Shown piece by piece: positions 3,866 through 55,186 of a DNA stretch of 64,000 bases. The notes beneath the pieces were generated by a model, which was not told the origin of the DNA, ran no database searches, and worked only from the letters and a program-made list of their open reading frames with translations. Origin of the DNA: a plasmid. Location: NCBI RefSeq assembly GCF_056712565.1, contig NZ_JBWXXM010000004.1. One strand, written 5' to 3'. A program made the translations under genes and the position numbers. The first letter of the stretch is position 1; every line of letters begins with the position of its first letter.

Positions 3866-3866
3866 A

Positions 3867-5479: not shown

Positions 5480-5490
5480 AAAAATCCCTT

Positions 5491-5823: not shown

Positions 5824-6079
5824 TTTTCACTTCCTGGCTGTGAAAATGTTGCTCTGCTTTGTTCATCGTCTCAATGGTCTGGTTAAGATCCATTATTGAC
5901 TTATCACGTTCCTTAACAGCCTGATCAAGACTGCCAATTTTCTCCATGGCTTGCTTTAGCTGATGACGTTCCCATGCAAACCCAGCACCAACAAGTGCGC
6001 AAATCAGAACAAGAACACCAGTAGCAGCAAGTTTCTCCTTCAAAGACAAAGCTGTTTTTAACGTAGAAAAGAATGACAT
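5657..6079 (-). CDS. N-terminally membrane-anchored coiled-coil protein (P1 ppfA position)
   Basis: ATG at 6079 follows RBS AGGAGGAAG. There is one TM segment (GVLVLICALVGAGFAW), and the rest is charged and helical. Confidence 0.6.
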   Translation of the reverse strand: MSFFSTLKTALSLKEKLAATGVLVLICALVGAGFAWERHQLKQAMEKIGSLDQAVKERDKSIMDLNQTIETMNKAEQHFHSQEVKNESEQAKYADRQMERKAEVQKQLVAAGNVRQRIPADTQRLLRESISEFNADADKG

Positions 6080-6118
6080 GTCTTCCTCCTGAAGAAAAAT
6101 TATCAATGAAGTCCTTTG

Positions 6119-6907
6119 TTACTGTGCCGCTTTGTTTAATTCATCAAGAACAGAATCAGGAACCAAAGCGGCAACTGCGCTGGCTGTGCTGGCCTTATTT
6201 GCTGATGCTTCCGCAAGCGCGGTACCGATAGCATGGTTATAAGCAGTTATGGCTACGTTGGCGCTTTCATTCGCTCGTTCATACTGCTGTTGTAACGCAG
6301 TTGTGGGCGCTGTTGTCTGGTTGAAAACAACCCCAAACTGTTCAGTTGCTACTTTCAGAGATTCAATTTGCTCTTCTGTTAGTGCTGGTGGGGGAGTGGC
6401 AGTGCCGCCGCCTGAACCAGAGCCTGACGAGCTTCCTGAGCCAGTGTTAAGGGTCTGGTTAATCTCCCCCATTGCAGCGACTAAACTTGATGTATTAAGC
6501 GCGTTAACAGCGTCCTCAAGCGATTTAGTAATATTCACATCACCAATGGCAATAGAGATCGGCAGTTCTGAAACTTCTCGCTCATTAGCACGGCAGTAAA
6601 CATCCCAACCAATATCGAGTTGAAGCAGCATTGACAGATCTGCATAACCAGCCAACAGGTCCGCGTGCTTAGTTGCCAGTTCTCCAATGTTCGTTAAGCC
6701 GGTTGTGGTTGTTCTGATCGTTGAAACATAGCTGGTAATAGTGTCGGGATAGACAATTGTATCCAGAATTAATCCGGTCAATTCTTCTGCAAGCAGTTTT
6801 GCTGTGTTAGCACTGTTTCGTGCCGATGTTATGGCACCAGGTGTTTTCATCCCACCGGCGGCGGCCAATTTTTTATATGCGGATAACTGGTAGTCTTTTT
6901 CCAGCAT
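6119..6907 (-). CDS. Hypothetical protein with internal Gly/Ser linker (P1 upfB position)
   Basis: ATG at 6907 follows RBS AGGAG. Contains a GSGSSSGSGSGGG tract. Confidence 0.55.
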   Translation of the reverse strand: MLEKDYQLSAYKKLAAAGGMKTPGAITSARNSANTAKLLAEELTGLILDTIVYPDTITSYVSTIRTTTTGLTNIGELATKHADLLAGYADLSMLLQLDIGWDVYCRANEREVSELPISIAIGDVNITKSLEDAVNALNTSSLVAAMGEINQTLNTGSGSSSGSGSGGGTATPPPALTEEQIESLKVATEQFGVVFNQTTAPTTALQQQYERANESANVAITAYNHAIGTALAEASANKASTASAVAALVPDSVLDELNKAAQ

Positions 6908-6915
6908 GATATCTC

Positions 6916-7200
6916 CTAACTTACCTGAACCAGGCCGTCTCCGGACGCTACGGTAGATCCGCATGAAACAGGGTCACCAACGCATACGATCCCTTTACCA
7001 TTGACGGTAAACCATGCCCTGGTTGATATAGCTTGCCCACCGTGCGTACTGTTTCCATCGGTATGCTGTGCATATTGCTTACCATCAACTAACACTTCGA
7101 CTCCGTTGACTTTAAGTAGTGGTTCACTCTCTACAGGAGGCCTGGATGGGAATCCTCCGTGCCCCGAACAAATGCTGTCTTTTGTTGCAATACTTGCCAC
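6916..7200 (-). CDS. PAAR-like spike-tip protein (P1 upfC position)
   Basis: 94 aa with repeated HGG..VNG..V..GD and GDPVSCG..VASG motifs typical of PAAR-repeat cones. Confidence 0.55.
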   Translation of the reverse strand: MASIATKDSICSGHGGFPSRPPVESEPLLKVNGVEVLVDGKQYAQHTDGNSTHGGQAISTRAWFTVNGKGIVCVGDPVSCGSTVASGDGLVQVS

Positions 7201-7281
7201 GCCATCACCAATTATTTGCTCTGATTTTCGTTATTTTAACTTAGGTTATTTGTGGTCTGTATGGCGTTTACTTATTACAAA

Positions 7282-7298
7282 ATTGCTCTAATAAATAT
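7282..7298 (+). promoter_or_regulatory. C1 operator
   Basis: ATTGCTCTAATAAATAT against the consensus ATTGCTCTAATAAATTT. Confidence 0.7.
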
Positions 7299-7369
7299 TG
7301 TTTTTTATGTCGTATTTTCGGTACCATTCAGCCATCGCCCTTCAATGGGCATTTGTTTGGAGTCGTCAG

Positions 7370-7654
7370 ATGCAGATGGAGCTAATAAGCCGCAAGGAGT
7401 TCGATAGCCGTGTAACCAGCGGTGAACTCGACAACTTGCAGGCTATCAAGGTGAAAGAAGGCTTTTGCCTCATTGGGAATCAGAGCGGAACAAATCGCGT
7501 TTTTATGCTTCGCCGTACGGATTTGAAGCCATTTGTCTGGAAGAACGAAATTGGTCCCAGCTCATACGCTCAAACGAGGGGGTGCCACAACCTGGCCTTT
7601 TTCTACAAAGACGAGCTTTCTGTGGTTGATATTCAAGGGTTACAACATGTTTAA
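7370..7654 (+). CDS. Hypothetical protein upstream of hrdC (P1 uhr position)
   Basis: ATG at 7370 follows GGAG. The stop overlaps the hrdC start. Confidence 0.5.
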
Positions 7655-8552
7655 GCACTGGAAAAACATTACTATTTATAAACTTTCTCGTGAGGCGGAT
7701 CTGACCGACTTAGAAGATAAAAAGAAAATGATCCTTTTCACGCCATGCGGTAGTCAGGATATGGCCAAGTTCGGTTTTGTATCGCCATTTGGTGATAATT
7801 CCGAAGTTATCGCTATGCATGGAAATGGTTTTATCCTTGTTGAAGCAAAGCGCGAAACAAAAATTCTTCCCCCGCCGGTTATCCAGCGAGCTATTCAAGA
7901 AAAAATTGAAAAACTTGAGCAAGAACAAGCGCGTAAACTGAAGAAAACAGAGAAGGACTCCCTGAAAGACGAAGTTCTGCATTCTCTTCTGCCACGGGCT
8001 TTTTCAAAGTTTTCTGTTATCCAGGCGATCTACGACGGTTCAACTAAACGTATCTATATCAATGCCAGCGCGCGGCAGGCAGAGGATATGCTCGCGCTTA
8101 TGCGTAAGTCTCTTGGTTCTCTTCCTGTTGTTCCCCTGAGTGTTGAAAATCCCATTGAATTAACGCTGACCGACTGGGTACGTGATGGTAGTGCTCCACA
8201 GGGATTTCAAATGGGGGATGCGGCAGAACTTAAGGCAGTGCTTGAGGATGGCGGTATTGCCCGAGTGAAAAAGCAGGATTTGGGAAGCGATGAAATTTCC
8301 ACACACCTGGAAGCTGGCAAGCTCGTCACTAAGTTGGCACTCGACTGGCAGAACCGCATTAAATTTACACTGGACCATAACTTCAGCCTTACCAGCGTCA
8401 AATTTGCGGATGAATTGCTTGAGCAGAACTCTGATATTGATAGTGAAGATGTTGCGCAGCGACTGGACGCAGATTTCTTCCTGTTAACCAGTGAAATTTC
8501 GTGCCTGGTTGATGCTCTGGTAAATGCCCTTGGTGGAGAGGCTAAGCAGTGA
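7647..8552 (+). CDS. hrdC: RdgC-homologue recombination-associated protein
   Basis: [13 protein letters not shown].. aligns by eye with E. coli RdgC along its whole length ([45 protein letters not shown]). Confidence 0.9.
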
Positions 8553-10813
8553 AAGAGCTGTGCTATGGATCTGTTTGCAGTGGAATTGAAGCCGCGAGTA
8601 TTGCCTGGGAACCGTTGGGTATGCGTCCGGCGTGGTTTGCTGAAATCGAGCCTTTTCCATCTGCCGTTCTTGCGCACCGCTGGCCCCATGTCGCCAACCT
8701 TGGCGACATGACAAAACTTGCCAAAAAAGTCCTGGCTGGGGAAATCGAATCCCCTGATGTGCTCGTCGGGGGTACGCCTTGTCAGGCATTCAGTATCGCG
8801 GGCTTACGTGGTGGGCTTGATGATGAACGCGGCGCGCTAACTTTGAAGTATGTGGAGCTTGCAAATGCAATTGACGACAAACGGTCTGAGTCCTTCCTCA
8901 AACCGACAGTTATCGTCTGGGAAAATGTCCCAGGAGTCCTGTCATCGGCAGATAACGCCTTCGGATGTTTCCTTGCCGGATTGGCTGGAGAAGATGCGCC
9001 ATTTGAACCAGGTGATCGACCTGAATCAGGAAAAAGTAACGCGTTCTGGCGGTGGGATGGCAAAACCGGTTGCCATGCTCCAAAGTGGCCGCAGTGTGGT
9101 TGTATTTATGGACCGCAGCGAAAGGTGGCCTGGAGAATCCTTGATGCCCAATACTTCGGAGTGGCACAACGACGCCGACGCGTGTTTGTTGTCGCAAGTG
9201 CTCGAACAGACCTCGATCCCGCAACGGTACTTTTTGAGTTCGAAGGCGTGCGCCGGGATATTGCGCCGAGCCGAAAAAAGAAGGAAATCGCTTCCGCCAT
9301 TATTGCAAATGGCGCTGCAATCAGTGGCGAAAGCCTAAATCCATGTCTACACGCTGACATTCCACCCGGTATGAAATCGACGAAAGCCGTAAACGCTTTC
9401 AGGATGGCAGCATTTGGGGAATATATTGACGATGAAACCGCATCGACAGTAAAGGCAAGAGATTTTAAAGATGCCACTGACCTTGCCGTTTTTAGCAGCA
9501 CAGGAGCAGGTTTTTGGTCAGAAGGGCATGGTACATTGCGGGCACGTGAGCAAGAAAGCCATGAGCATCTTGTTACATTGGCTTTTCCTGAGCGTATGAG
9601 CGGTACACAACATGCTGCAACTAAGAATACTTCACCATCTCTAATGGCTAAAAATCCAACAGCTGTTTGCTATGAAGTAAGAAACGCAGAAGTAGCTGTC
9701 CGCCGTCTTACCCCTGTCGAATGTGAAAGGCTGCAAGGTTTTCCTGATGGGCATACGTTGATCCCGACGGAAAAGCGTAAAAAAGTTAATTCAGATGAAC
9801 TGGCATATCTTCGCAATCACTATCCAGATTTAAGCGAAGAAGAGGCCGCGATGCTTGCAGCTGACGGACCGCGTTACAAAGCGATCGGCAATAGTATGGC
9901 AATACCAGTAATGCGCTGGATTGGCGATCGGATTACTAAGGCCGTATGTCGGCAGAAAGAAGGAAGTGAAACAAAAGAGCGAAAAGTTAAACCAGCGGCA
10001 GAATTCGAACGGTCCATATTCAAATGGGCTGGTGGAAAATTTGGTGTTCTGGAACAAATCTTTCGCTATTTGCCAGAAGGGAAGCGCCTGATTGAACCTT
10101 TCGTTGGTGGCGGAGCTGTCTTCATGAATGCCGGATACCAGGAAAATCTGCTAAATGATGTGAATGCTGACCTGATTAACTTTTACAAGACTCTGCAACG
10201 CGAGGCGCATTCACTTATCACTCTGGCACATCGTTTCTTCCAGGACTATAACACACAGGAAGGATACCTGGCAGTACGGAATGCGTTTAACAAACAAGTC
10301 TATGATGATTTACATCGCGCAGCGGCGTTTTTGTTCCTGAACCGACATTGTTTTAACGGATTGACGCGTTACAACCAGGCCGGTGAGTTCAATGTCGGTT
10401 ATGGGAAGTATAAAACTCCGTATTTCCCATTACAGGAGATGGAAGCCTTCCTCGGTGCGGAAGGGCGGTCTGAGTTTGTATGCGGTGATTTTGCAGCGGT
10501 GATTGAAGCTGCCGGAGAAGGAGATGTCATCTTTTGCGATCCGCCGTATGAACCGCTTCCAAATACAGAGGGATTCACGAACTATTCCGGTCATGACTTT
10601 AAGTTTGAAGAGCAAAAACGCCTGGTGTCTCTGTTGACGGATGCTCATCGTCGAGGTGCAAAGGTTCTCATTACTAACAGTGGCGCGCCAAATATCAGAG
10701 AGCTTTATCATGACAGTGGCTTCAGAGTGGAACCTCTTTTTGCCAGACGTTCTGTGTCTTGTAAGGGGGACACTCGAGGTGTAGCTCATGACGTTTTAGG
10801 TATATTGCTCTAA
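8549..10813 (+). CDS. dmt: Bifunctional DNA methyltransferase (N-terminal C5-cytosine MTase fused to a C-terminal Dam-like N6-adenine MTase)
   Basis: 754 aa. C5 motifs: [22 protein letters not shown] and the QGFP/GNS region. Dam motifs: FKWAGGK and DPPY. Confidence 0.9.
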
Positions 10814-31748: not shown

Positions 31749-32944
31749 TCACTATTACCAAAGAGCGACTGCTGACAATCAAGCAGTGGCGCGAAACATA
31801 CGGACCTGGTAGCAACGTTGTACTGCCAGCAGAAGAAGCGGAAGAGCTGGCACGGATTGCTCTGGCATCGCTGGAAGCAGAACCGGTGGCATGGACTGAT
31901 GAAGAGGAACTGCGCGATGTCAGGAAGTATGGTTTCGGTGAGATATTTCAGTGTCCGCCAGATAAATATGCGGACCCGCGTCGTGTAATCTCGCTGTATC
32001 GCGAGCTGCCAGCACCGGTAGTGCCAGATGATTGGCAACTCGTACCTAAGAAAATAACACTGGAAATGGAATGTGCTCTATCAAAAGCTGATAGCTATGA
32101 AATTGGTTGGCTATGGGCATTGGCAGCCGCACCTAAATACGAAGTACAGAACGCTAAACGCGTGCAAAACGCGCTTAACGCCTGCCGCGCCGCCATGCTT
32201 CAGTCCGGAAACTTTCGGGAAAACAAGAATTCGTCAACCAATAATTTTCGGGAAATCGCGGAAACGTCAACCAACTATCCGGCAATTCCTAGTGAGGTGT
32301 TGTCCGCAATCCTGAAGGTTGCCAGGATTCGTGCCGATTTCGATGATTTTGACGGTGACAGGCGAGGTATCGGTGATTGTCTGGATGAGGCTGAGCAAGA
32401 GCTTATCGTTACCATTAACAAATATGCCAGTCAGTTGGCAGCAGAACCGATAGCGACTAATGACGTTCGAGAGCAGCAGACAGCCGTTCCGCCAGTTCCG
32501 GAAATACAGGATGATGTCGCGCAAGCAATTGAAAATCTCAAGCAGAAGTTAGTGGAATGCAATCGCTATAACTACTGCGCAGATGCAGTTAAAGGCGTAG
32601 AGGATGCCTGCCACGCTGCCATGCTTCAGGGTAGGGAACGCCTTGTTCTGGATGCCGCTACCAGAACCGCCGCAGGAGGCGAAATGATGGATGTAAAAGA
32701 GAAGGTTTTGCAGGTGATGCGTTCCCGGGCTGCCCTGCAAGATAAAGCTCTCGGCGGGGAATATCCATTCAGGATGGCAACCTGGAATCTGCGGTTGGCA
32801 ATGGAGAAGGAATTTCCTGATGAAGAATGGCGGTCGGCAGATTTGCGCAAAATTCTTATGGAGCTGGCTAAAGATGGAACAGTATCCAAAGATACCCATG
32901 CCAGCCGGATTGGTCAGGCGGTATGGAGACTGGAGGTGAGGTAA
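31745..32944 (+). CDS. Hypothetical 399-aa protein with internal C(R/H)AAMLQ repeats
   Basis: ATGA-coupled to the nuclease-like gene. The C-terminus looks like a winged helix (weak support). Confidence 0.5.
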   Translation: MITITKERLLTIKQWRETYGPGSNVVLPAEEAEELARIALASLEAEPVAWTDEEELRDVRKYGFGEIFQCPPDKYADPRRVISLYRELPAPVVPDDWQLVPKKITLEMECALSKADSYEIGWLWALAAAPKYEVQNAKRVQNALNACRAAMLQSGNFRENKNSSTNNFREIAETSTNYPAIPSEVLSAILKVARIRADFDDFDGDRRGIGDCLDEAEQELIVTINKYASQLAAEPIATNDVREQQTAVPPVPEIQDDVAQAIENLKQKLVECNRYNYCADAVKGVEDACHAAMLQGRERLVLDAATRTAAGGEMMDVKEKVLQVMRSRAALQDKALGGEYPFRMATWNLRLAMEKEFPDEEWRSADLRKILMELAKDGTVSKDTHASRIGQAVWRLEVR

Positions 32945-33020
32945 TAAGCTGGCCTGAAGCATTTGCGATTGTAGGCGTAGCTATGGCGATTGCCGCTATT
33001 TTTATCTTCTGGGGGTAACG

Positions 33021-33254
33021 ATGGGAAAATTAACTTTTGTAGTCGAATTTGAGGATGGCAAAGAGCCACCTGTTAGCGCCAATCTTGATGTTGCTGGTGG
33101 CAGGCTGGTTTCGGTTCTATTTGGTGATTACCGCGACGACTTCTTTCAGCCTGAAGAAGTTGATGTAGTGCGAGAAGCATTAAACGAGCTAAGTGTTGAT
33201 AACGATGATGCTCATGCGGAAATCATCAAAAAAATGGAACTGCTAACTCACTAA
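33021..33254 (+). CDS. Small acidic hypothetical protein
   Basis: 77 aa, with RBS GGGGG. Confidence 0.45.
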   Translation: MGKLTFVVEFEDGKEPPVSANLDVAGGRLVSVLFGDYRDDFFQPEEVDVVREALNELSVDNDDAHAEIIKKMELLTH

Positions 33255-33302
33255 ATTATCAATTATGGTGCTATCACCTACGACACCGAGAGAAAATTTA
33301 TA

Positions 33303-33425
33303 ATGTCAAAAGTAAATGTTTTGATTTTTTCAGCAATTGTTGGCTTTGGTTTTACTGCCGGAGTGCAGATTTATATTACGTGGGAAAAAATCATCAACTA
33401 CGCATGGAGTTGTTTTATTAAGTGA
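33303..33425 (+). CDS. 40-aa membrane peptide
   Basis: MSKVNVLIFSAIVGFGFTAGVQIYITW.. in an AT-rich stretch. Hand-translated. Confidence 0.35.
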   Translation: MSKVNVLIFSAIVGFGFTAGVQIYITWEKIINYAWSCFIK

Positions 33426-33432
33426 GGTAAGT

Positions 33433-33726
33433 ATGTGGAGAGGTAATAATCATGGCAAAAGCCAGATGATACTTACCGAATATAAGCTAGACCACAAAAC
33501 CAATAAATCACGCTCAGTATATTTGCTCCGGCACAATAGCCGCGTAAGAAATACCGTGCTGGAACAAAATCTGACAGTTGAAATGGATAATTGCGGGGGA
33601 TTCAAGCCAACAATTTCGCTTGATGATTTTCCTCGTGGTTTAAGCGAAAGAGAAGCAATGCTGAAATTAGCAGAATGGCTACAAAGATTAAGCATTGCTA
33701 TTGAAGATAACTGGTCTGAACCTTAA
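33433..33726 (+). CDS. Hypothetical protein (97 aa)
   Basis: Internal Met of the 33337 ORF, chosen because it follows the upstream small ORF. Confidence 0.4.
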   Translation: MWRGNNHGKSQMILTEYKLDHKTNKSRSVYLLRHNSRVRNTVLEQNLTVEMDNCGGFKPTISLDDFPRGLSEREAMLKLAEWLQRLSIAIEDNWSEP

Positions 33727-33732
33727 ATTTAT

Positions 33733-34107
33733 ATGATGACACTAAAACATTTTCTTGACCGCCCATTATGGGCGGCAGCCGCAGGCTATGACTTTAATTA
33801 TATGGATTGCATGTCTTATACTGCCAATGCATACGACCATTCGTTCATCCTGCTGTTTAATTCTTTAAGAATATTGCCGGAAACAGAAGTTGGAGAGCTT
33901 CATTTATGGCTATTGGGCTTTATCGCGGCTGTCGTTGGTATTGCTGTATGGCCTTTTATTTTCTGGCTGGTGGCTGTTGTAGTGTGGTTTAAGTGCAAGA
34001 CATACCGGAAAAAGTATTTCTTAGGTGATGGAATGACTGATATTGCCAAAATGAACATTGAAGAATGGACTAAGGAATGTGAAAAGAAATGGCGCAAAAA
34101 GAAATGA
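33733..34107 (+). CDS. Membrane protein (124 aa)
   Basis: TM segment LWLLGFIAAVVGIAVWPFIFWLVAVVVWF and a Lys-rich tail. Confidence 0.5.
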   Translation: MMTLKHFLDRPLWAAAAGYDFNYMDCMSYTANAYDHSFILLFNSLRILPETEVGELHLWLLGFIAAVVGIAVWPFIFWLVAVVVWFKCKTYRKKYFLGDGMTDIAKMNIEEWTKECEKKWRKKK

Positions 34108-34739
34108 CCAGAATCACTGAAGAGCGCATATCAGAGATTATTTCCCGTATCGAAATGTATGGTCACGGTGCTGGATATACGGCAGATGAAGTATTGGAAA
34201 TAGCCCAGCAGATGCTGGCCTTGAGACAAAAAGAGCAACATGAAAGTAATACGTGTAGATTGAATTTTGAGCATTGGCTGGAACAGCAACGCGGAAAAAT
34301 CGATGTGGACTGTGGTTGTGTGTCCACTGAAACATTCATGCACTGGCTGCGGGTAGCTTACGAGGCTGGCAACTATCCGGATATTCCGGATAGTTCGGTG
34401 CCAGCGCCAGGAAAGGGCGTCACCGGTGAACGTATCCGCATTAAGCCGCATGTTTATCGCGAACTGGTTAACCGTCTCCACGATACAGCGATCAAGTGTG
34501 CTGGCACCCAGCAATTACGAGAAAGAATTAGCCGTGTTTTGGGCGACGTTATTACACCAGATCATCATAAACAAGCCGAGAAAAGTGACCTGGAAAGGTG
34601 TCACCTTGAGGCGGCATTAAACATTAAGCCGGGGCATACGCTTGGCATTATTGATGCACTATTGGTTCATAAGATGGCCAGGGCTTTATTGCCGCTGGTG
34701 GCTGAAAAGCATGAGGTGGACCATGCCAACGAAAGCTGA
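34104..34739 (+). CDS. Hypothetical protein (211 aa)
   Basis: ATGA-coupled start. Confidence 0.5.
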   Translation: MTRITEERISEIISRIEMYGHGAGYTADEVLEIAQQMLALRQKEQHESNTCRLNFEHWLEQQRGKIDVDCGCVSTETFMHWLRVAYEAGNYPDIPDSSVPAPGKGVTGERIRIKPHVYRELVNRLHDTAIKCAGTQQLRERISRVLGDVITPDHHKQAEKSDLERCHLEAALNIKPGHTLGIIDALLVHKMARALLPLVAEKHEVDHANES

Positions 34740-45041: not shown

Positions 45042-45602
45042 ATGAAAACAATCGAACAAAAACTTGAACAGCGCCGCGAGTGGCAGAAGGCAGCCAGAGA
45101 ACGAGCGATCGCTCGGCAACGGGAAAAGTTGGCTGACCCCGCCTGGCGAGAATCGCAATATCAGAAAATGCGGGATTCTATCGACCGCCGTATCGCTAAA
45201 CAGAAAGAGCGCCCACCAGCCAGCAAAACGCGGAAAAGTGCGGTAAAGATAAAATCTCGTGGCTTGAAGGGGCGAACATCGACAGCGGAGGAACGGAGCA
45301 TCGCCAATGCTCTTGGCGCTCTCCCCTGCATTGCCTGCTACATGCATGGAGTAATATCTGAAGAGGTATCTCTGCACCATATCTCCGGTCGTACCGCGCC
45401 GGGTTGTCACAAAAAGCAATTGCCCCTTTGTAGATGGCACCACCAGCATGCAGCACCGGCTGAAGTAAGAGAAAAATACCCCTGGCTGGTCCCTGTTCAT
45501 GCCGATGGTGTGGTTGGAGGCAAGAAAGAATTCACCTTGCTGAACAAGTCAGAGATGGAGTTGCTGGCTGACGCCTATGAGATGGCAAACATCATGCACT
45601 AA
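45042..45602 (+). CDS. ref: Recombination enhancement function (HNH endonuclease)
   Basis: 186 aa with a basic N-terminus and a C-terminal HNH-like region (CIACY..HH..H). Confidence 0.9.
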   Translation: MKTIEQKLEQRREWQKAARERAIARQREKLADPAWRESQYQKMRDSIDRRIAKQKERPPASKTRKSAVKIKSRGLKGRTSTAEERSIANALGALPCIACYMHGVISEEVSLHHISGRTAPGCHKKQLPLCRWHHQHAAPAEVREKYPWLVPVHADGVVGGKKEFTLLNKSEMELLADAYEMANIMH

Positions 45603-45639
45603 TAAATATATTATTTTTAATCTGAAATAATTGACAACT

Positions 45640-45649
45640 GACAAGTGAC
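45640..45649 (+). promoter_or_regulatory. Late-promoter-like box (GACAAGTGAC)
   Basis: TTGACAACTGACAAGTGACTTCAGTCAGAAT, upstream of mat. Confidence 0.4.
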
Positions 45650-45751
45650 TTCAGTCAGAATCATCACATGCCCGGTACGGATGGATCCCTTTTCAAATAT
45701 TCCATGGACGGCACAGTCTGAGTACCGGGCGCTACCTTCAGTTGTATTGCT

Positions 45752-45779
45752 AAGCCGCCGCTGGTGGCTTTTCTTTTTT
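45752..45779 (+). terminator. Terminator-like hairpin and T-run 13 nt upstream of the mat ATG
   Basis: AAGCCGCC-GCT-GGTGGCTT followed by TTCTTTTTT. Confidence 0.5.
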
Positions 45780-45791
45780 GTAGGGGGCGCT

Positions 45792-46433
45792 ATGGATAAG
45801 AAAATATGCGTTGTTTCGATGAGCGTCGGCAAACCGGCGTCAATGACTGCTGCATGGATCAACAATGAGCTAATAATGGCTGAGCGGACCAGCTACCCTG
45901 AACGCCGCCGCGATATGGAACTCCAGCTGCTGCGCGAATTGCGAGAAAAAGAGGAAAAGGGTTTTATCGTGCTGGTGGAAGAGGAAAACAGCTTTATTAC
46001 TGGTCGAGTTGGCCAGCGTGTAAGGTTGCGCGATCCCTTCATGAACGGCAGGCCGGTACTAATTGAGGCAATGCAGATTTATAAGGAGCTGGAACGCCAG
46101 AAAGCAATCAAGTTACCGCGCAAGGAATCCGGCAAATACATTCTCCACCAAAGCATCTTCGATTCCGAACACGATAAAAAAGGCGATGAGTTTTTCAACA
46201 TCAACTGGAGCGAAATAACGACAGAGCATGTTCTGACGTTGTTATGCTGCTTCGCAACAGAATACAACAACGTGGTAAGCGCAGACTACATCAGGGCAAT
46301 GGCTGGAGAAGTTGAGGCCCGCCAAGAACCATCGTTACTAAGTCCACTGATTAACATAATTCTGGGCACCCAGATACTGGAACAAAAAAAAGTGCCGAAA
46401 GGGGTATTAACAGGCAAGCATAATTATTTTTAA
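45792..46433 (+). CDS. mat: Particle maturation protein
   Basis: ATG at 45792 follows TAGGGGG; the ORF track extends upstream to 45645. Assigned by synteny after ref. Confidence 0.65.
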   Translation: MDKKICVVSMSVGKPASMTAAWINNELIMAERTSYPERRRDMELQLLRELREKEEKGFIVLVEEENSFITGRVGQRVRLRDPFMNGRPVLIEAMQIYKELERQKAIKLPRKESGKYILHQSIFDSEHDKKGDEFFNINWSEITTEHVLTLLCCFATEYNNVVSADYIRAMAGEVEARQEPSLLSPLINIILGTQILEQKKVPKGVLTGKHNYF

Positions 46434-46526
46434 CAATTACATACAGTAATTTTGTGGTTACATTCTCCATTGATTTTCTAACCGCTTTATCATTAGATGT
46501 AACAGCATGTAAATCATTTAAAATGG

Positions 46527-47663
46527 ATGAAAGCAATGGGGAATGAAGTTTATCAAAGTCAAAAATGCAAGTTGAAATATTCAAAATCTCAAATTGATAG
46601 GGCTGCTCAATTGATAAGGCACGGGTGTAGTGACGAAGAAAGGCAGCAATCTATTGAAATGATACAAAATTTCCGTGAGCTGCATCTTTATCCATTAATG
46701 CTCATGAAAAATCATTTAGCAAGAGCAGCTGCTAAGGTTGACAAGGACAAAAAGATTCTCGTTGCAAGAAGACTTAAGCGACTTTCTACCATAATAGATA
46801 AACTAGAGCGTCCTAGTCTTGATGGAGGCAGAACTAGCAATGCAATTAAATTAACACGGATGCAGGACGTTGGCGGATGTAGGGCCATTGTCAGAAACTT
46901 AGACCAGTTGATACAGCTAAAGGAACGTCTTTTAAAAAGCAAATCTGTTCATAGGATTGTTAAAGAGTATGATTATCTTACTCCCAAAGACAGCGGCTAT
47001 AGTGGAATCCACCTTGCATACAGTTGCTTCGATCAGAAAGAGGATCAATATCCGTGGCGAAAAACAAAGATTGAGATACAGTTAAGAACTCAATTGCAGC
47101 ATGCTTGGGCTACCAGCCTTGAAATAATTGATACCCTTGAAGGTATCAAGCTGAAAACTTCAAGTGAAGGGCATCCAGAATGGAGACGATTTTTCTATCT
47201 AGCCGGATGTCTTGTAGCGCACGACGAAAAAGCCTGCACTCTTGATGAGCTAGTTGTATCTCAGTATGAAGGCGAGCTTAAAGAGCTGGAACGGACTTTA
47301 TCTGTACGGAGGAAACTAAGCACATACACCATCGCCTTAAATTTAACTTCTGACGCGAATTTGATTAAGAAGTTGCCAAAAAATCATAAGGGGCATTACT
47401 TAGTAACAATGAGAAATGCAGAAAACAAGCCCAATACAAAAAACAAAAAAATGTTCCTAGTGTCTGTTCGCGCATTTAAAACAAAAGAAGCAGATGAAGC
47501 CCTTGAGGCCTTAAATAAAGACGATTCTAATCCTAATGTATTGATATCTGTTCTCGTTGCTACAGATAACATTAAGTCACTAAAAAAAGCCTACCCCAAC
47601 TATTTTGGCTCAACAAACCAGTTTACAAAATTCTTAGATAAGCATCTTCGTAACGAAGGATAG
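46527..47663 (+). CDS. Fused RelA/SpoT-homologue toxin-antitoxin (toxSAS, CapRel-type anti-phage defence protein)
   Basis: RSH synthetase motifs are present in order: RRLKRLSTIIDKL, DVGGCRAIV, SGYSGIHLAY and EIQLRTQLQHAWATSLE. A C-terminal region of about 125 aa has no catalytic motifs. The gene is AT-rich and monocistronic. Confidence 0.8.
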   Translation: MKAMGNEVYQSQKCKLKYSKSQIDRAAQLIRHGCSDEERQQSIEMIQNFRELHLYPLMLMKNHLARAAAKVDKDKKILVARRLKRLSTIIDKLERPSLDGGRTSNAIKLTRMQDVGGCRAIVRNLDQLIQLKERLLKSKSVHRIVKEYDYLTPKDSGYSGIHLAYSCFDQKEDQYPWRKTKIEIQLRTQLQHAWATSLEIIDTLEGIKLKTSSEGHPEWRRFFYLAGCLVAHDEKACTLDELVVSQYEGELKELERTLSVRRKLSTYTIALNLTSDANLIKKLPKNHKGHYLVTMRNAENKPNTKNKKMFLVSVRAFKTKEADEALEALNKDDSNPNVLISVLVATDNIKSLKKAYPNYFGSTNQFTKFLDKHLRNEG

Positions 47664-47670
47664 TTGCTTA

Positions 47671-47697
47671 ATTTTGCCCGGTAATTCCGGGCAAAAT
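47671..47697. terminator. Bidirectional terminator between the RSH gene and lxc
   Basis: ATTTTGCCCGG-TAATT-CCGGGCAAAAT. Confidence 0.75.
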
Positions 47698-47699
47698 TG

Positions 47700-47948
47700 T
47701 CAATCTGCATTCAGGAGCAATGCGTTATCTATGATGATCTGCTCCCATTCTTCGAATGCCCGATCGCGGACGCCCTGGGGAACACTGTTAGTTTTGAAAT
47801 CGACCACCGTCCGCCATTTCCCGTCCGGGCGGTACATGCGCAGAGCTTTACTTCCCCCTTCCCTGCGCACCTCAACGTTATGCTTATCAGCAAACTCTTG
47901 TAATGCTCGTAGCGTCCCATGCTTTACTGTGTAGTATCGCTTTTTCAA
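47700..47948 (-). CDS. lxc: C1 co-repressor Lxc (Bof)
   Basis: 82 aa, the size and position of P1 Lxc/Bof. Confidence 0.75.
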   Translation of the reverse strand: MKKRYYTVKHGTLRALQEFADKHNVEVRREGGSKALRMYRPDGKWRTVVDFKTNSVPQGVRDRAFEEWEQIIIDNALLLNAD

Positions 47949-48385
47949 GTTTTCTCTCCAGCCTGTGCCAAGGCTTCAACTTCCAAATCGTAAGACTCAA
48001 ACTCATAGTCCTGGTCGTCAACTTCTTCAGGCACTGGCAGTAAATGCCAGGCTGAGTATATCTGACCATTATCAAAACGCTCCTGGCTGTAGAGCGTCGC
48101 GGCTATGAGTGTTAGCGCCGGGCGGTCATAACGGTAAATTTTGCGAACGTCACGGTCAACGAGACGACCGAAATTACCATAACCGCGCTCCAGTAATAAT
48201 TTTTTAATTTCCGGCCAGTATGGACCATAGCTGCGGTACAGGCGGGGATTTTTCAGTAATCGCCCGCGTAGCCCTGACAGGAAGAAATCAACGTATTCGT
48301 CTTCTGTCTTTCCTAACAACGCTGTACGGAGTACCGCCTCAAGATATGTTTTATTCGGTTTTATTGTATCAGATAGTGTGGCCAT
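47945..48385 (-). CDS. ulx: Ulx (needed for DarB incorporation into capsids)
   Basis: 146 aa, lying between darB and lxc as in P1. Confidence 0.65.
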   Translation of the reverse strand: MATLSDTIKPNKTYLEAVLRTALLGKTEDEYVDFFLSGLRGRLLKNPRLYRSYGPYWPEIKKLLLERGYGNFGRLVDRDVRKIYRYDRPALTLIAATLYSQERFDNGQIYSAWHLLPVPEEVDDQDYEFESYDLEVEALAQAGEKT

Positions 48386-48418
48386 ATTATGCGACGCCCG
48401 GCGAACCGGGCGCTCCTG

Positions 48419-51400
48419 TTATGCGTATTGTTGGATGACGGCCAGAACGTCCGCCACGTTGTGTTTTGTCTCGATAATCCACCAGTTACCCGGGAAATCG
48501 CTGTTCTTCGCCTTCGCTGGCAGCCAGCGAGCGCCGAATTTCGCCTTGATTGCGTCTTTCGCACGGAAAAGAACGCCTTTCATGCCTGAGGCTTCCTGAA
48601 GCCCAAATACCTCGCCAGCGGCGAATTTTGGTGCGTACATCATCTTCAGGTCGGCGGTGGATACGCGATAATTCAGACCAAGAGACTGAGCTATGCTGGT
48701 GGCATCACCCTGTGTTGATGATAACTCTTCTTGTTTCTCGTTTCTGGCGGCAATCTCTTCCTCCGTGATGTTGCCAAGGGCTAGGTTTATCCGATCAGCG
48801 TCGGCCTGTTTCTCTTCATCGGTGCGCCCGGCAAGAACCGTGTTAATTCTCTGCAATATCTCCACATGATTCTTGCGCATGCTGAGCAATTCCGGCGTAA
48901 CCTCGTTAAGATCCACCAGCCCAAGGATGGCAAGGTCGGAAAACATTGATACCAGGTTGTAGGTCATGCGATAGCTGAGTTGACCATAGGCTGATGGCAA
49001 CTTCACAGCATCCATTTGATAGGCATCCATAAATTTAGAGCCGTCGTTTACGACATCCGCTATTGCAGGTGTGATTTTCCCTGTGGTGGCGGCCTCCCTG
49101 ATTGCTGTTACCCACGATTGAGTCAGCGCGGCGACTGCATGATTCAGATTGGCTTCCCGTTCTGCTACGATGCGCGCGCTTGCTGCGTCCATTGCCTGCT
49201 TGATCTCGGCTTTATTGCTGTAAATGCCAATGGTGCCAAACTGTGCTGTGGTGATCTCATAATCTGACCCCCGGAACTCATTGGTACCGAAAATGGCATT
49301 GGTGACTTCAAGTTCAGAATCCCCGTTACGAGTAGCCCCCTGGCTTGTTTTTTCCGGCATTCTGGCGATCGCATCCGCTATTTTCTCCTGAATTGCTTCA
49401 GGGGATAGCGTATCTCCGTATGACGCGATTACATCGCCATAATTGGAGCCAAACAATTCAACCAGGAATGTTTCTGCCGAACGGATCTGGCGGTTATTCC
49501 CTTCCGACATCATACCAAGCACCCATTTTGCAATTGACGACTTCAGCGCGTCGTCACGGCGATCCGGGTAAACCGCATGCTTCAGTGGGTCCGTATAGGT
49601 ACCAACAAAATCAATGCTATAGCCTGACTCTGTAGTCTGAACGCCGTACGAGTCAGTTATTTTGATCATGCCGCGCTGCTGGAAACGGTAGAAATCGTCA
49701 CAGGAAATGATGTCGTTAATCCCGGCGATGGAGACGCCACCACTGATTTTCTGCATAACAGCATCTTCATCGGGAGTTACATCCACCTGTTTATCCAGCG
49801 TCTTCACATCCCAGTTACCCGATTTGGTGCCTTTGAAGGTAAAGATGATCTCCACGTCTGCGCGCTGGCTGTCGAAGTCCAGCGACTTAATGCGAACGAT
49901 ATCACCGGCACAATCGTAGTATTGGCCTACACGCCATGAGCGATCGCCGATAACAAGGAACTCACTCGCATGGTTAACCAGGTCAGGATCAACATCCAGA
50001 ATGCCTTTATTTATTGCATCCTCCACCAGCGGGCGCAGGCGTTTGATATCCGTCGCGGCCTTCTGAGTACGGTTCAATAATTTCTCATAGCGGGAGATGG
50101 CTTGAGAGATATTAGCCTTGCGCTGAATGGCGTTTTTCAACGACGCGCGATACTGTGCTAACAACATACGGTCTGTGTGATGGACGCTCCCCCAGCGGGC
50201 CTTCCAGTCTGCGTTATCAGCTGCTTTGGCCATTACCGCCTGTTTGAATTTGGCGACGTCGGCGGTGGTCTTTTCAAGTTCCGCTTTGCTTCGCTCTAAT
50301 TCAGCGGTAAGTACCTCCACATCCTCGCCAGCTGCGTGCTGCGCCTTGATGTAGTTCTGAAGGTCGATAGTAGCCTGTTCTTTCTGGCGAGCGCGTTGCG
50401 CGGCTTTCGCCTTATCCATTTGAACCTGCATCATTGCCAGACGTTCGCCATCATCCTTAGCGGTATACATCTGCATTTCGATCATATCGTTGGCGTCGGC
50501 GTTCTCCATTTCTGACTTATCTGAACGGAGGATATCGGAGATCCAGCCTGCTTTACGCTTCAGCGTCTTCAGTCGGTATTCATCGAAAGAACCCTTGCCG
50601 CAGTAGTAGTGAACGCGAACGCTTGCACGGTTGGAGCCAACTCGGGCACCGCGACCGTTACGCTGTGCGATACTGGCTGGTGTCCATGGCAACGTCAGAT
50701 GATGGATGTCAGTCGTTCCTCGATGCAGGTTGATACCCACCTCTGCCTTTTTGTTGCAGATGATGATCGGAGTCCGGCCCTCCTGGAAGTCGGCAGCAAT
50801 CTTTTCCAGCCCACCCAGCGACATTTCATTTTGCTGCGCGATATAGGCGTCATACAGAGCCATTTGCTCGTTGTATTTCGCTATCTGTGCATCTGTTGGT
50901 TCATCCGGTAGCTCTTTCGGCGGTTTAACCGCTTTCAGTTTCTTACCGGTTTTACCTGCCTCGGCAACCGTCTGAGCATTCAGGATCCCCACCTTTGAAG
51001 GTTCAAGGTTAAGAGCATTGCAGATAATGCGCTTGAGCTTCTGGTGTTGCGTTTTTTCATCGGTGAAGATGATTTGCTTACCTTCCGGGAAAAACTCCTT
51101 CAGCGTGGCAATCAGCTTCGCGTATTTGGGCGTAACGGGGTGAGTTACGGTCTGTTCGTCAATGCCAAACTTGGCCAGGCGCTTATTCACTTCCTGCTCG
51201 AACGCTTCCGGAACCTGCAACTGAATAAACTCGCCCTTATCTATCAGGGAGTATTGCGATTGCTGCGTGATTGAATCATCACTGTCGTCGTCTTCGCTGG
51301 TGGCTTGTTTAGGCAAACTGTCCGCCAGCTGCTGCACCGCATCGGCGTACTCCGGCAGGAAACGATAGGTGATCCGGCGATAGTACAGGTCCATGTCAGT

Positions 51401-54400
51401 ACATACGCGGTCCATATCCCTGATTATTGAGAAGATCGGACGGGCTTTCTCGTGCTCAATCACGCCGTCTTCATTGACCGAGGTCGTTACGCCATTGTTG
51501 GCTTTGGCCGCCGCTTCCGCCTGCTGACGCAATTCTTCATACGCCGCCAGTTGTTCTTCAGTAAGTGGTGCATCCTGCTGGTGTTCGTCCAGCTCCGGGA
51601 TCTCCACGGTATCCTTAACGTCTTCCGCCGTTTTAAGCGTTACCCAGCGATGGAATATACCGCGCAGCGCATCAAGGTTTTCAAAGCCCACCAGCGCCAT
51701 TTTTTCTTCAACTTCACCGCTAATTTTCTGTACCGTTTCCAGCCTGGTCTTGCCGAAGAATTTAACGAAGTCATCAGGACCGTAGATCCCCATGTTCTGC
51801 CAGTATTCCTTCGGCAGAACATGAGAAAGCATGTTGTATGCATCGATCGGGGTGTTAACGACTGGCGTTGCAGTCAGGAGAACCGGCCCGCGCCCGCCAT
51901 TCTTTTTCATCAGGTACGCGTTTTTAATTGCCATATCTCGCGCCGATTGCGCCACCGCGCTGGTGGGCAGATAGGCCAGTTGTGACGCTTCGCGACCATT
52001 TTTATAGCTATTGCGGTAGTTGTGACCTTCGTCGGCGATCACACTATCGAAGCCCATATCCTCAAAGTACGGATACTTCTCTGCTTTTTCGGTGCCGGTA
52101 TCTGAATACTCCGACAATACCCGGCGACGCGCGGCCTCTTTGCGGTGGGAGTCGGAGTCCATTGCGCTGGCTACGCGCCCGGCTGCAACGAAGTCATAAA
52201 GCATATCCTGTGCATGCTCATCTACGGTGTCATCACGTAGCGGAATGCGGGCGTATTGTTCTTTGGTAAACACGACTGCACGGTAATTTGAGTGCGGGAT
52301 CGCGTTCATCCGCGCCGTGATAGTGGCTTCATCTGCCAGTTTTAGGGCATCGCGCATAACTGGAGTGCCATCAGTACCAAGAACAGGTTTACCGTTCTCA
52401 TCGAGCACCGGCACCTGGCGAATCTGATCGCCATCCATCAGCACATCAAGACCGACGAACAGGTAGTTACTGAATGCCTCTTCACTCAGGAATTCTTTTG
52501 CTTCGTAATACCAGTTTTCCAGCACTGATTTAGGCACTACATACGCAGTACGGGTGGAGCGACCGTTCTCATAGTTGAACGCCTCAAGCGCCAGCGCGGT
52601 CGTAGTTTTACCCAGCCCGGTGCCGAAGCCCAGGATGCCGCGCCCATCTTCGGACAGTCGGCGCACTTCGCTATTCTGGTAATCAAATGGCTGGCGCTTA
52701 CCGCTTAATCCCTTCAACCCAAGCGGATCGCCAGAGTGTTCATACGGGATATTGCTATTGAACACATCGTTGTATTTGGCAACCAGTTCATCGTAGCGAT
52801 CGTGCGTCTTGATCCACTTATTGAACTGGTCCTCAAGCAGTGCCATCTGCTCGCGGTAGCCGTTCGCCGTCGCGCTATCTTTGCCACCGATACGCGCACC
52901 ATTGAGATACTTTTCCAGCTGTGCCGGGAACCCGGTCGCGTTTTCACCTGATTTACGGTCCCACTCGTAGCGGATCTCGCCTGTTTCTTTATCCTTGCGC
53001 TGGACGACACCGTATCGGTGCCCGACGAACAGACCATCACCACCGTGATAGGTGTCAGAAACCATTTCGTCGCCTTCCAGCTGCACTGACTGCACATAGC
53101 GAAGATCCGGATAGCCGTTTTCCTGCAAAAATTCCAGAATGACGGAACGGTCGAACCAACGGCTATTGAGCTTAAAGCGGATATTCTCTGCTGGCGTCTT
53201 GATGCGCTTCTCTTCGATCGCTGCCAGCTGATTAAGGACGTTGTTCTTTACTGGACCGTCGGGGAGTGTGGCAAGGAATTCCTGTTTTGGTGCCACTATC
53301 TCGTTAATGTCGCCGCTGGTGGCGCGGGCGAACGGAACAATCCCGCCATACGGTGAAACCGCAATGCCAGGGGTGCTGGCCAATAAATTAAGCAACTCGT
53401 CATCACTGGCTGGCAGTTCGCCGGTAAACGCAAGGCGGAAATCATCGAGCTGGATTGGATCGCGAGTGAGATCACTGTAGAGATAACGCAGGGTGTCCTG
53501 ATAGCTGGTGGAGTCATAACTGGCGCTGGAATCATGCGTAACCAGTTTTCCTGTCAGCTCGTCAGAAATAGTGCCATCCAGCTTAATTGCACCACGGAAA
53601 GCAAACCAGGCGCGCGCACCGCTCCCCGATAATTTCGCTATCGGACCGCGACCGGGGTTACCAAAACGGTCAATCTCTGCCTGCAAACGGGATACCAGAG
53701 AAAGGCGCTGCTGTTCGATTTGTTCAGCACTATGCCCGGCGGCCTTCATGTCCTGATATTCAATTAACATCCGGCCAATCATCGCCCCGCGATACAAGCG
53801 TTCACGGTATTTTTCAGGCTGGCTGTTAATCCAGTCCACCAGCTGCACCATATCGTCGCTGATTGATGTGGTGTACTTATCGCGGACATTTGCCATCTGG
53901 GTAAATGTCATGCCGAGACGGCCTTCTGTTGTAGTCAGGTTACGCTGAAGAGCCTCCCAGCTATCCGCGCCATAACTGGCAGCATCGATCTTAAGTTCCT
54001 TCCCTGCATCAGCTTCAATCCAGCGACCACCAGCATATTTTTGCCATACGCCATTAATCAGGCGCATTTCCCCTTCACCAACAACGTCTGCGGTCGGTGA
54101 CGGTTCAGCCATATCGAGCAAAGACCAGTCGATACGGCTTTCGAAACGATGAATCAGCTTCGCTTTAAGAGCCTGGTTATCAATCTGACCGTCGGCACGA
54201 ACCTCAATACGCCCCTGGAAGCCCTTTTCCTGGGTGCCATGAACAAACCGGCGGCCATCCTTTTCAAACCACTTGCCAGAAATAAACGTTGACCAAAGCA
54301 CATTTGCCGATTCGAGAGTGCTTTCATCCACCAGGGGGATTTTCTCAGCCATCTCTGCCGGATGTTTGCGCATCAGCACCACATCTACGACCGTACTGGT

Positions 54401-55186
54401 CCCGTTAGCGTCAAAAGTACCGGTAGGCAAGCGGTGAGCGCCAAGAAATTCAGCTTTACGGGATAGGCGCAGGCGTAACCGCTTCATGTTTGAACCTGAA
54501 ACAATGGACGGCGGCACAATCACGCACATGAATCCGCCTGGCTTTATCTTGTCCAGCATGCGGAGCATGAAGTAAGAACCCATGTCCGTTTCTTCTGCGT
54601 AAGGCTTATCGATGTTGCGTGTGTTATCACGACCACCGAACGGAACGTTACCCACAACATGGTCGAATGAATCGTTAGGCGTGCTTACAGCCAGCTGTTC
54701 GAACGGGGAAATCTGTACGCTGTCTTCCGGGTGTAACAGCTGGTTTATACGACCGGAAACACTGCTGATCTCAGTCGCAGTCATCACCGTACCAACCGGT
54801 TTTGTCTCATTAAAAACGCCGGTGCCCGCCGATGGTTCCAGAGTGTTACCTACGTCCGCGCCGTAGAGCTTCATGATCTCCCAGACACCTTCAGCGATCG
54901 GCTTTGGTGTGTAATATTCGGAGACGGACCCGCCAATGCCGCCTTCACCGGTGTACCCAGCCAGGATCTGGCGCTGTTCATCTGTCAGTGTCGCGCCGTC
55001 CACCAGCGAATTAAGCAAATCTATCGCCTTCTGATTCGCCTCCCGGCGCAGTCGGTCATAGCTTTTGCCTTCCACCTTTTCCACGCCGTATTTAATCGGC
55101 GCTCGGTGAGATGTTATTGCCCTAATGTATTTCAATATTTCGCTGACACTTGAACAGCGAAACACCCCCATAGATAGCTTGTTCAT
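48419..55186 (-). CDS. darB: DarB antirestriction protein (N6-adenine MTase domain plus SNF2/DExH helicase domain)
   Basis: 2255 aa. Contains the MTase motif VVGNVPFGG, the helicase motifs GFGTGLGKTT and ADEGHNYRN, and a C-terminal helicase block with QRNGRGAR. Confidence 0.92.
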   Translation of the reverse strand: MNKLSMGVFRCSSVSEILKYIRAITSHRAPIKYGVEKVEGKSYDRLRREANQKAIDLLNSLVDGATLTDEQRQILAGYTGEGGIGGSVSEYYTPKPIAEGVWEIMKLYGADVGNTLEPSAGTGVFNETKPVGTVMTATEISSVSGRINQLLHPEDSVQISPFEQLAVSTPNDSFDHVVGNVPFGGRDNTRNIDKPYAEETDMGSYFMLRMLDKIKPGGFMCVIVPPSIVSGSNMKRLRLRLSRKAEFLGAHRLPTGTFDANGTSTVVDVVLMRKHPAEMAEKIPLVDESTLESANVLWSTFISGKWFEKDGRRFVHGTQEKGFQGRIEVRADGQIDNQALKAKLIHRFESRIDWSLLDMAEPSPTADVVGEGEMRLINGVWQKYAGGRWIEADAGKELKIDAASYGADSWEALQRNLTTTEGRLGMTFTQMANVRDKYTTSISDDMVQLVDWINSQPEKYRERLYRGAMIGRMLIEYQDMKAAGHSAEQIEQQRLSLVSRLQAEIDRFGNPGRGPIAKLSGSGARAWFAFRGAIKLDGTISDELTGKLVTHDSSASYDSTSYQDTLRYLYSDLTRDPIQLDDFRLAFTGELPASDDELLNLLASTPGIAVSPYGGIVPFARATSGDINEIVAPKQEFLATLPDGPVKNNVLNQLAAIEEKRIKTPAENIRFKLNSRWFDRSVILEFLQENGYPDLRYVQSVQLEGDEMVSDTYHGGDGLFVGHRYGVVQRKDKETGEIRYEWDRKSGENATGFPAQLEKYLNGARIGGKDSATANGYREQMALLEDQFNKWIKTHDRYDELVAKYNDVFNSNIPYEHSGDPLGLKGLSGKRQPFDYQNSEVRRLSEDGRGILGFGTGLGKTTTALALEAFNYENGRSTRTAYVVPKSVLENWYYEAKEFLSEEAFSNYLFVGLDVLMDGDQIRQVPVLDENGKPVLGTDGTPVMRDALKLADEATITARMNAIPHSNYRAVVFTKEQYARIPLRDDTVDEHAQDMLYDFVAAGRVASAMDSDSHRKEAARRRVLSEYSDTGTEKAEKYPYFEDMGFDSVIADEGHNYRNSYKNGREASQLAYLPTSAVAQSARDMAIKNAYLMKKNGGRGPVLLTATPVVNTPIDAYNMLSHVLPKEYWQNMGIYGPDDFVKFFGKTRLETVQKISGEVEEKMALVGFENLDALRGIFHRWVTLKTAEDVKDTVEIPELDEHQQDAPLTEEQLAAYEELRQQAEAAAKANNGVTTSVNEDGVIEHEKARPIFSIIRDMDRVCTDMDLYYRRITYRFLPEYADAVQQLADSLPKQATSEDDDSDDSITQQSQYSLIDKGEFIQLQVPEAFEQEVNKRLAKFGIDEQTVTHPVTPKYAKLIATLKEFFPEGKQIIFTDEKTQHQKLKRIICNALNLEPSKVGILNAQTVAEAGKTGKKLKAVKPPKELPDEPTDAQIAKYNEQMALYDAYIAQQNEMSLGGLEKIAADFQEGRTPIIICNKKAEVGINLHRGTTDIHHLTLPWTPASIAQRNGRGARVGSNRASVRVHYYCGKGSFDEYRLKTLKRKAGWISDILRSDKSEMENADANDMIEMQMYTAKDDGERLAMMQVQMDKAKAAQRARQKEQATIDLQNYIKAQHAAGEDVEVLTAELERSKAELEKTTADVAKFKQAVMAKAADNADWKARWGSVHHTDRMLLAQYRASLKNAIQRKANISQAISRYEKLLNRTQKAATDIKRLRPLVEDAINKGILDVDPDLVNHASEFLVIGDRSWRVGQYYDCAGDIVRIKSLDFDSQRADVEIIFTFKGTKSGNWDVKTLDKQVDVTPDEDAVMQKISGGVSIAGINDIISCDDFYRFQQRGMIKITDSYGVQTTESGYSIDFVGTYTDPLKHAVYPDRRDDALKSSIAKWVLGMMSEGNNRQIRSAETFLVELFGSNYGDVIASYGDTLSPEAIQEKIADAIARMPEKTSQGATRNGDSELEVTNAIFGTNEFRGSDYEITTAQFGTIGIYSNKAEIKQAMDAASARIVAEREANLNHAVAALTQSWVTAIREAATTGKITPAIADVVNDGSKFMDAYQMDAVKLPSAYGQLSYRMTYNLVSMFSDLAILGLVDLNEVTPELLSMRKNHVEILQRINTVLAGRTDEEKQADADRINLALGNITEEEIAARNEKQEELSSTQGDATSIAQSLGLNYRVSTADLKMMYAPKFAAGEVFGLQEASGMKGVLFRAKDAIKAKFGARWLPAKAKNSDFPGNWWIIETKHNVADVLAVIQQYA

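Follow-up and report, generated by a model that had tools for sequence, protein, structure and literature searches.

The locus considered here raises the question of what a single AT-rich gene does between mat and lxc of a P1-like plasmid, in the position that the res and mod genes of the EcoP1I type III restriction-modification (R-M) system occupy in P1. The gene lies in a stretch of 64,000 nucleotides (nt; the window) from contig NZ_JBWXXM010000004.1 of assembly GCF_056712565.1. A first, sequence-only reading of the window had regarded it as a CapRel-type fused toxin-antitoxin gene. In this work, its product was found to share 74% identity with CapRel of the Salmonella phage-plasmid SJ46, CapRel(SJ46), with key residues conserved and a matching predicted fold, so the family assignment stands. 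The gene very probably encodes a fused toxin-antitoxin anti-phage protein of the CapRel family, carried as exchangeable cargo of a P1-like phage-plasmid. It is also the gene known as relAP1. The gene relAP1, the CapRel family and the variable slot, known as RD-1, are each already published; that relAP1 is a CapRel appears to be unpublished, no link between the two having been found in the literature searched.

The four synthetase motifs noticed in the sequence-only reading (RRLKRLSTIIDKL, DVGGCRAIV, GYSGIH and EIQLRTQLQHAWA) are present in the open reading frame (ORF) of 378 amino acids (aa) at 46527..47663 (+), but the annotated form has 375 aa and begins at the in-frame ATG at 46536, the longer form being an alternative start. 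The shorter form is that of the database copy of the identical protein (P0001), whose cluster at 90% identity has 313 members. The start at 46536 agrees with the start of the CapRel(SJ46) crystal construct, MGSEVYQ, and a Shine-Dalgarno-like sequence, GGATGA, is located 5 nt 5' of this ATG. Residues are numbered here in the 375-aa form, which is the same as SJ46 numbering through residue 298.

The profile search that had been suggested as a check returned RelA_SpoT as the only Pfam domain (3e-12, residues 82-196), and the catalytic residues align with those of CapRel(SJ46). No hydrolase domain was detected by Pfam, and the C-terminal ~135 aa carry no Pfam domain at all, in agreement with the first impression that this part lacks an enzymatic signature. 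The protein matches PDB entries 7ZTB ("Salmonella tRNA pyrophosphokinase CapRel") and 9ERV (CapRel with Bas11 Gp54) over the full length, with E about 1e-185. BLASTP against CapRel(SJ46) gave 275/371 identities with one 1-residue gap, the alignment running to residue 371. Furthermore, the PADLOC candidate family PDC-S33 matches end to end (6.7e-86).

Residues with roles assigned in CapRel(SJ46) (PMC9712102) are conserved, namely R79 and R116, which coordinate ATP; Y155 of the G-loop; Y352 and Y355 of the autoinhibitory YXXY; A77, V338, L339, A341 and A351 of the docking interface; and L280 and L307(308) of capsid sensing. The toxSYNTH domain holds R79, R116, the G-loop Y155 (46998-47000), I179 (47070-47072) and E180/Q182/R184. 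The C-terminal region comprises anchor-1 with helix alpha9 (aa 270-279), a pseudo-zinc-finger domain (pseudo-ZFD), the YPNY autoinhibition motif (aa 353-356, 47592-47603) and a C-terminal helix. R79, R116 and Y155 are invariant across 50-116 homologues, and YXXY is likewise invariant in the family. Among 116 homologues, 99 positions are at least 97% conserved, and the window protein keeps 98 of them, I112V being the sole departure. In the same alignment, the entropy is highest at aa 271-315 (2.4-2.8 bits) and amounts to 0.2-0.5 bits in the catalytic motifs. As for the residues that sense Gp54 (set from PMC11578894), L270, D273, N275, L276, K278 and K316 are kept, and K277I, S279K and R314K are changed. 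The AlphaFold2 model (pLDDT 82.5) has strands at 286-294, 307-315 and 335-342 and a helix at 316-330, which is the SJ46-type pseudo-zinc-finger topology, and its superposition on 7ZTB/9ERV gives TM 0.83-0.94. After these, the best structural matches were RelP and RelQ, small alarmone synthetases that extend over the N-terminal half only.

The identity of the gene with relAP1 follows from a 90-nt ancestral relAP1 oligonucleotide (PMC10865808 Table S1), which matches positions 47027-47116 of the window with one mismatch. The mismatch, at 47114, is a synonymous ACT/ACC (Thr), so the M114 and window alleles are near-identical and not the same sequence. relAP1 was named in the P1-like phage of Escherichia coli M114 and proved to be an RD-1 gene whose neighbours are in every case mat and lxc (Lai and Cooper, mBio 2024, PMC10865808), the same flanks and position as in the window. 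It was shown to be antagonistic with blaTEM-116*, causing a gene-dependent fitness cost, although relAP1 alone carried no fitness cost and was not toxic. A null allele of relAP1 or the compensatory I179S abolished the cost, and CTX-M-15 and SHV-12 had no cost with relAP1 (PMC10865808). I179 adjoins the invariant E180 and stands at the same position in the window protein and in relAP1.

Lai and Cooper read relAP1 as a ppGpp synthetase devoid of any regulatory domain (PMC10865808). According to this reading, an unregulated small alarmone synthetase would raise basal (p)ppGpp and sensitise the stringent response. The resemblance of the RelA_SpoT synthetase fold to the RelP/RelQ structures agrees with it, and so does a gene-dependent cost that is lost with a substitution near the catalytic residues. 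However, its premise does not hold for the C-terminal 135 aa, which align with the CapRel antitoxin/sensor including YXXY and the interface residues; the relAP1 paper makes no mention of CapRel, and the domain was identified as such in the present analysis. Moreover, the 74%-identical SJ46 enzyme pyrophosphorylates tRNA (PMC9712102), and the harmlessness of relAP1 alone is more in keeping with autoinhibition than with an alarmone synthesis that is constitutive. We regard an unregulated alarmone synthetase as improbable.

For the CapRel-type protein, we hypothesize the following mechanism by analogy with CapRel(SJ46). In an uninfected cell, the C-terminal pseudo-ZFD would be folded back onto the N-terminal toxSYNTH domain, with YPNY placed between R79 and R116 and thereby blocking the ATP site. 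The autoinhibited protein would open once a phage protein is bound by the pseudo-ZFD and the anchors, as described for known members (PMC9712102, PMC11578894, PMC13423816). The toxSYNTH domain would then transfer pyrophosphate from ATP to the 3' adenosine of tRNA, leading to translation arrest, abortive infection and restriction of the phage. For the window protein, the pyrophosphorylation of tRNA 3' ends is expected from its 74% identity to the SJ46 enzyme (PMC9712102).

The two P1-borne proteins have the same architecture and fold (373 aa in CapRel(SJ46) vs. 375 aa in the window; 7ZTB, 9ERV; Zhang et al., 2022, 2024), and both genes occupy the same slot of a P1-like element in the same orientation (mat, CapRel, lxc). 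Their DNA identity is only 68%, with pN 0.17 at nonsynonymous and pS 0.85 at synonymous sites, the latter being saturated, which indicates an old divergence under purifying selection. A neighbour-joining tree built from the 21 nearest cluster representatives puts the two P1-borne alleles on long branches of their own, and they are not sisters. A recent allelic variant of the SJ46 gene was thus rejected on DNA identity, saturated pS and tree position. The toxSYNTH core (aa 41-240) is 81% identical to SJ46; for aa 241-269 the value is 59%, and for aa 270-339, the segment exchanged in the published specificity chimera, it is 63%. In the beta6-beta7 loop, ITK-NGKDTGK is replaced by ENKPNTKNKKM. 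The difference in specificity between CapRel(SJ46) and CapRel(Ebc) is due to this sensor region (PMC9712102), and because the region has diverged here, the triggers of SJ46 are not transferable to the window allele.

The sequence-only reading had also placed the gene in the P1 slot for type III R-M, which agrees with the maps: in P1, the space between mat and lxc is taken by res and by a mod gene that IS5 interrupts, P7 has res/mod in the same slot, and in RCS47 the slot is empty, with 39 bp between mat and lxc. Hot-spot RD-1 was defined at P1 coordinates 3,469-9,749 (res-mod; Venturini et al., 2019, PMC6906374), and the window slot fits it in lying between mat and lxc, in its low G+C content and in the variation of its cargo among relatives. 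"A putative phosphokinase" is listed in RD-1 of pTZ20_1P (PMC6906374); this plasmid (NZ_MN510447.1, 130,134 bp) carries the window gene with 99.9% DNA and 100% protein identity. In addition, DefenseFinder results in a 2025 preprint indicate that P1-like phage-plasmids of E. coli commonly carry CapRel (10.1101/2025.09.12.675607). The EcoP1I/EcoP7 R-M systems of P1 and P7 are likewise AT-rich cargo with a defence function. On the other hand, their proteins and mechanism are unrelated, DNA restriction as against abortive translation arrest in CapRel, and they consist of two genes (5.2 kb) on the opposite strand, in contrast to the one gene (1.1 kb) of the window.

The proposed comparison of the mat-lxc interval across P1-like elements revealed alternative cargoes of about 13 kinds. 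The sample comprised the best 80 of 112 IMG/VR matches with Ulx as anchor, and the interval from the conserved part of mat to the lxc stop was measured in 78 elements, which fell into 17 sequence classes. The counts give no more than an indication, because the sample was not dereplicated and is limited to these 80 matches. The slot contained a single SIR2_2 gene (434-435 aa) in 14 elements, type III R-M in 11 (two variants plus P1), a DUF2971/PDC-S31 gene (346 aa) in 10, GNAT acetyltransferases in 8 (two variants, 201-202 aa), the SJ46-type CapRel in 7, a PIN_12 gene (316 aa) in 5 and the window-type CapRel in 4, the window included. A 3.7-kb cluster of lipoprotein, ANT antirepressor, helix-turn-helix (HTH) and JukA-like genes was present in 4 elements, an EAL plus AraC-like pair in 3, a pair of YaaC-like and nucleoside-deoxyribosyltransferase-like (NDT-like) genes in 2 and a 135-aa lipoprotein in 2; the slot was empty in 8. 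Alternative AT-rich cargoes, several of them uncharacterised, were seen in elements L012, L015, L006, L008/L009, L007, L049, L013 and L073. All cargoes have a G+C content of 33-43%, and the empty interval has 52%. The window cargo (46434-47675) has 37.8%, vs. 48.3% in the window and 47-53% in mat, ref, cre, lxc, ulx and darB, as had been noticed from the composition; it is the minimum over all 1242-bp segments of the 64 kb, with 0.08% of them at or below this value. The pattern is one of a fixed position between conserved genes and of mutually exclusive, AT-rich, mostly defence cargoes with neither dedicated recombinases nor flanking repeats. The idea of an exchangeable defence slot thus holds for the exchange, but the GNAT, EAL plus AraC-like and lipoprotein genes do not look like defence.

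The boundaries of exchange are the mat stop codon on the left and a point just before the hairpin beside lxc on the right. The last ~70 nt of mat (46301-46433 of the window compared) form a mosaic among the elements that is independent of the cargo, and recombination breakpoints are accordingly placed at the mat stop codon. The mat-end variant of the window is nearly identical to that of the GNAT-cargo element L008; empty-slot and SJ46-type elements carry other variants. Transposition or integrase-mediated insertion was rejected, since neither flanking direct or inverted repeats nor a recombinase in the cargo were found at the window slot. It is therefore likely that cargo is exchanged by homologous recombination in the conserved mat and lxc flanks, and the CapRel gene would have entered between them in this way.

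A toxin-antitoxin locus on a low-copy plasmid prophage may also be read as mainly a plasmid-addiction module, which stabilises the P1-like plasmid by post-segregational killing and does not sense phages; res/mod of P1, in the same slot, have been discussed as an addiction system (PMC6906374). Yet the toxin is here joined to its antitoxin in a single chain and cannot be released by differential decay. In addition, 6 of 9 evolved M114 lines survived the complete loss of the P1-like element and had gained in fitness (PMC10865808), and P1-like elements with an empty slot persist. This explanation is most unlikely. As the sequence-only reading had found, there is no separate antitoxin gene next to the ORF: neither the gap of 102 nt between the mat stop (46433) and the start codon nor that of 36 nt between the gene stop and the lxc stop (47700) contains an ORF of 40 aa or more, the other ORFs being only antisense or internal overlaps. 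A bicistronic toxic small alarmone synthetase (toxSAS) system of the PhRel/ATphRel or FaRel2/ATfaRel2 type was ruled out on these grounds.

DNA at least 99% identical to the gene was found in 82 of 5,426 complete E. coli genomes, at 86 places, of which 82 are on plasmids and 4 on chromosomes; the latter may be integrated P1-like elements. In PLSDB, the window allele occurs in 52 plasmids, vs. 22 records in the 60-80% protein-identity band, mostly of SJ46 type. When the gene was compared with phages and plasmids by megablast, only copies at least 99% identical were obtained, the SJ46 allele being visible by tblastn only. Some copies are disrupted. In phage vB_EcoM-673R5 (L001 5103-6202) the coding sequence is split in two by a frameshift (2-nt length difference), in NZ_CP050045.1 (13287-15329) the gene is interrupted by IS1, and truncated copies occur in two plasmids, NZ_CP070916.1 and NZ_CP103610.1. 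The coverage of the gene is below 80% in 7 of the 82 E. coli genomes.

Such copies, together with a slot that tolerates emptiness, would suit an inactive remnant, a neutral passenger in a recombination-prone, AT-rich slot. The window ORF is nevertheless intact and keeps nearly all of the near-invariant family positions, purifying selection relative to SJ46 is strong despite saturated synonymous change, the DNA is conserved across the 82 genomes, and a gene-dependent phenotype is published (PMC10865808). A remnant is hardly credible in view of these data.

Several observations weigh against an anti-phage CapRel. No phage data for the window allele were found in the literature searched, and the sole published phenotype is the blaTEM-116* cost, which was read by its authors as ppGpp synthesis (PMC10865808). 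The sensor region (aa 270-339) differs from that of SJ46 at 26 of 70 positions, in addition to the 1-aa insertion in the beta6-beta7 loop. Moreover, the existence of frameshifted, IS1-interrupted and truncated copies means that the gene is dispensable and perhaps costly.

The coordinates of the gene, its parts and its neighbours are collected in Table 1. The gene order in the window is cre, c8, ref, mat and CapRel, followed by lxc, ulx and darB on the opposite strand. The cargo had been described as lying beside the counter-defence genes lxc-ulx-darB; this is correct for ulx and darB, which belong to the Dar system (10.1101/2025.09.12.675607), but not for lxc, a modulator of C1. In the non-coding stretch upstream of the cargo, the consensus scan of 102 nt gave no convincing sigma-70 promoter; only a weak candidate is proposed, consisting of a -35 TTGATT at 46470-46475, whose position is conserved with SJ46, and a weak -10 TTAGAT at 46493-46498. 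A clone with 134 bp of upstream sequence was functional at attTn7 (PMC10865808). No Rfam match was obtained in 45600-48500 at E<=1, and a hidden RNA element was rejected accordingly.

Table 1. Features at the mat-lxc slot of the window.
Feature	Coordinates	Strand	Basis or remarks
mat (maturation control), left slot flank	45645..46433	+	93-98% nt identity to mat of P1, P7, RCS47, SJ46
AT-rich non-coding stretch upstream of cargo, presumed promoter location	46434..46535	+	SJ46 comparison
CapRel-type fused toxSAS toxin-antitoxin gene (relAP1)	46536..47663	+	375 aa; alternative ATG 46527 gives 378 aa
N-terminal helices and toxSYNTH (RelA/SpoT synthetase-fold) toxin domain, aa 1-240	46536..47255	+	Pfam RelA_SpoT, SJ46 alignment
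C-terminal antitoxin/sensor region, aa 241-375	47256..47660	+	7ZTB alignment, AlphaFold2 secondary structure
Hairpin, perfect 12-bp inverted repeat adjoining lxc stop	47670-47698	.	AATTTTGCCCGG-TAATT-CCGGGCAAAATT
lxc (modulator of C1), right slot flank	47700..47948	-	P1 annotation
ulx	47945-48385	-	
darB	48419-55186	-	

The hairpin beside the lxc stop, which had been taken for a bidirectional terminator, is real, and on each strand it folds significantly better than shuffled controls (z -4.1, -4.7). A rho-independent terminator was rejected, because on both strands the stem has a T-run before it and an A-run behind it, which leaves it without a U-tract, and because the terminator scan did not call it. 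Its core, GCCCGGTAATTCCGGGCAAAATTG, was also found in the empty-slot element L036; the hairpin therefore belongs to the backbone beside lxc and not to the cargo. Nearly every cargo class ends in its own G+C-rich hairpin beside the lxc stop, with differing hairpin sequences (elements L002, L012, L032, L015, L006, L007, L008, L009, L013 and L073), and a structured element at the lxc-side junction appears to be maintained whatever the cargo. Elsewhere in the window, the sole other stretch with a G+C content below 0.41 in 1242-bp segments is ~32851-34400 (about 0.40), which is possibly a further site of acquired cargo in the P1-like backbone.

If relAP1 is a CapRel, the blaTEM-116* cost could be a form of autoimmunity. 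We put forward tentatively, as a possibility that is rather doubtful at present, that the sensor is weakly triggered by TEM-116*, directly or via a host factor, and that this would cause low-level pyrophosphorylation of tRNA. CapRel sensors have unrelated proteins among their known binding partners (PMC11578894, PMC13423816), and a host-factor precedent exists in CapRel(Ebc)-FtsZ-Gp0.4. The assignment of the gene to CapRel, the harmlessness of relAP1 alone, the lifting of the cost by I179S or a null allele and the costlessness of CTX-M-15 and SHV-12 are compatible with such triggering. The 64-kb window itself contains no blaTEM.

The finding mostly confirms the published picture, in which the mat-lxc interval of P1-like phage-plasmids holds swappable AT-rich cargo and a CapRel-type abortive-infection gene is one of the common cargoes in E. 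coli. It adds that the commonest allele in P1-like plasmids of E. coli is not the studied SJ46 allele, its sensor domain being 37% different. The slot catalogue also offers uncharacterised cargoes as defence candidates, namely SIR2_2, DUF2971/PDC-S31, PIN_12, GNAT and YaaC-like plus NDT-like genes. As a CapRel, relAP1 would provide a testable mechanism for the published antagonism between a phage gene and an antibiotic-resistance gene. If triggering by TEM-116* proved true, a trigger of non-phage origin would be established for a CapRel for the first time, and an anti-phage sensor borne on a phage-plasmid would also gate the resistance plasmids that its host can carry.

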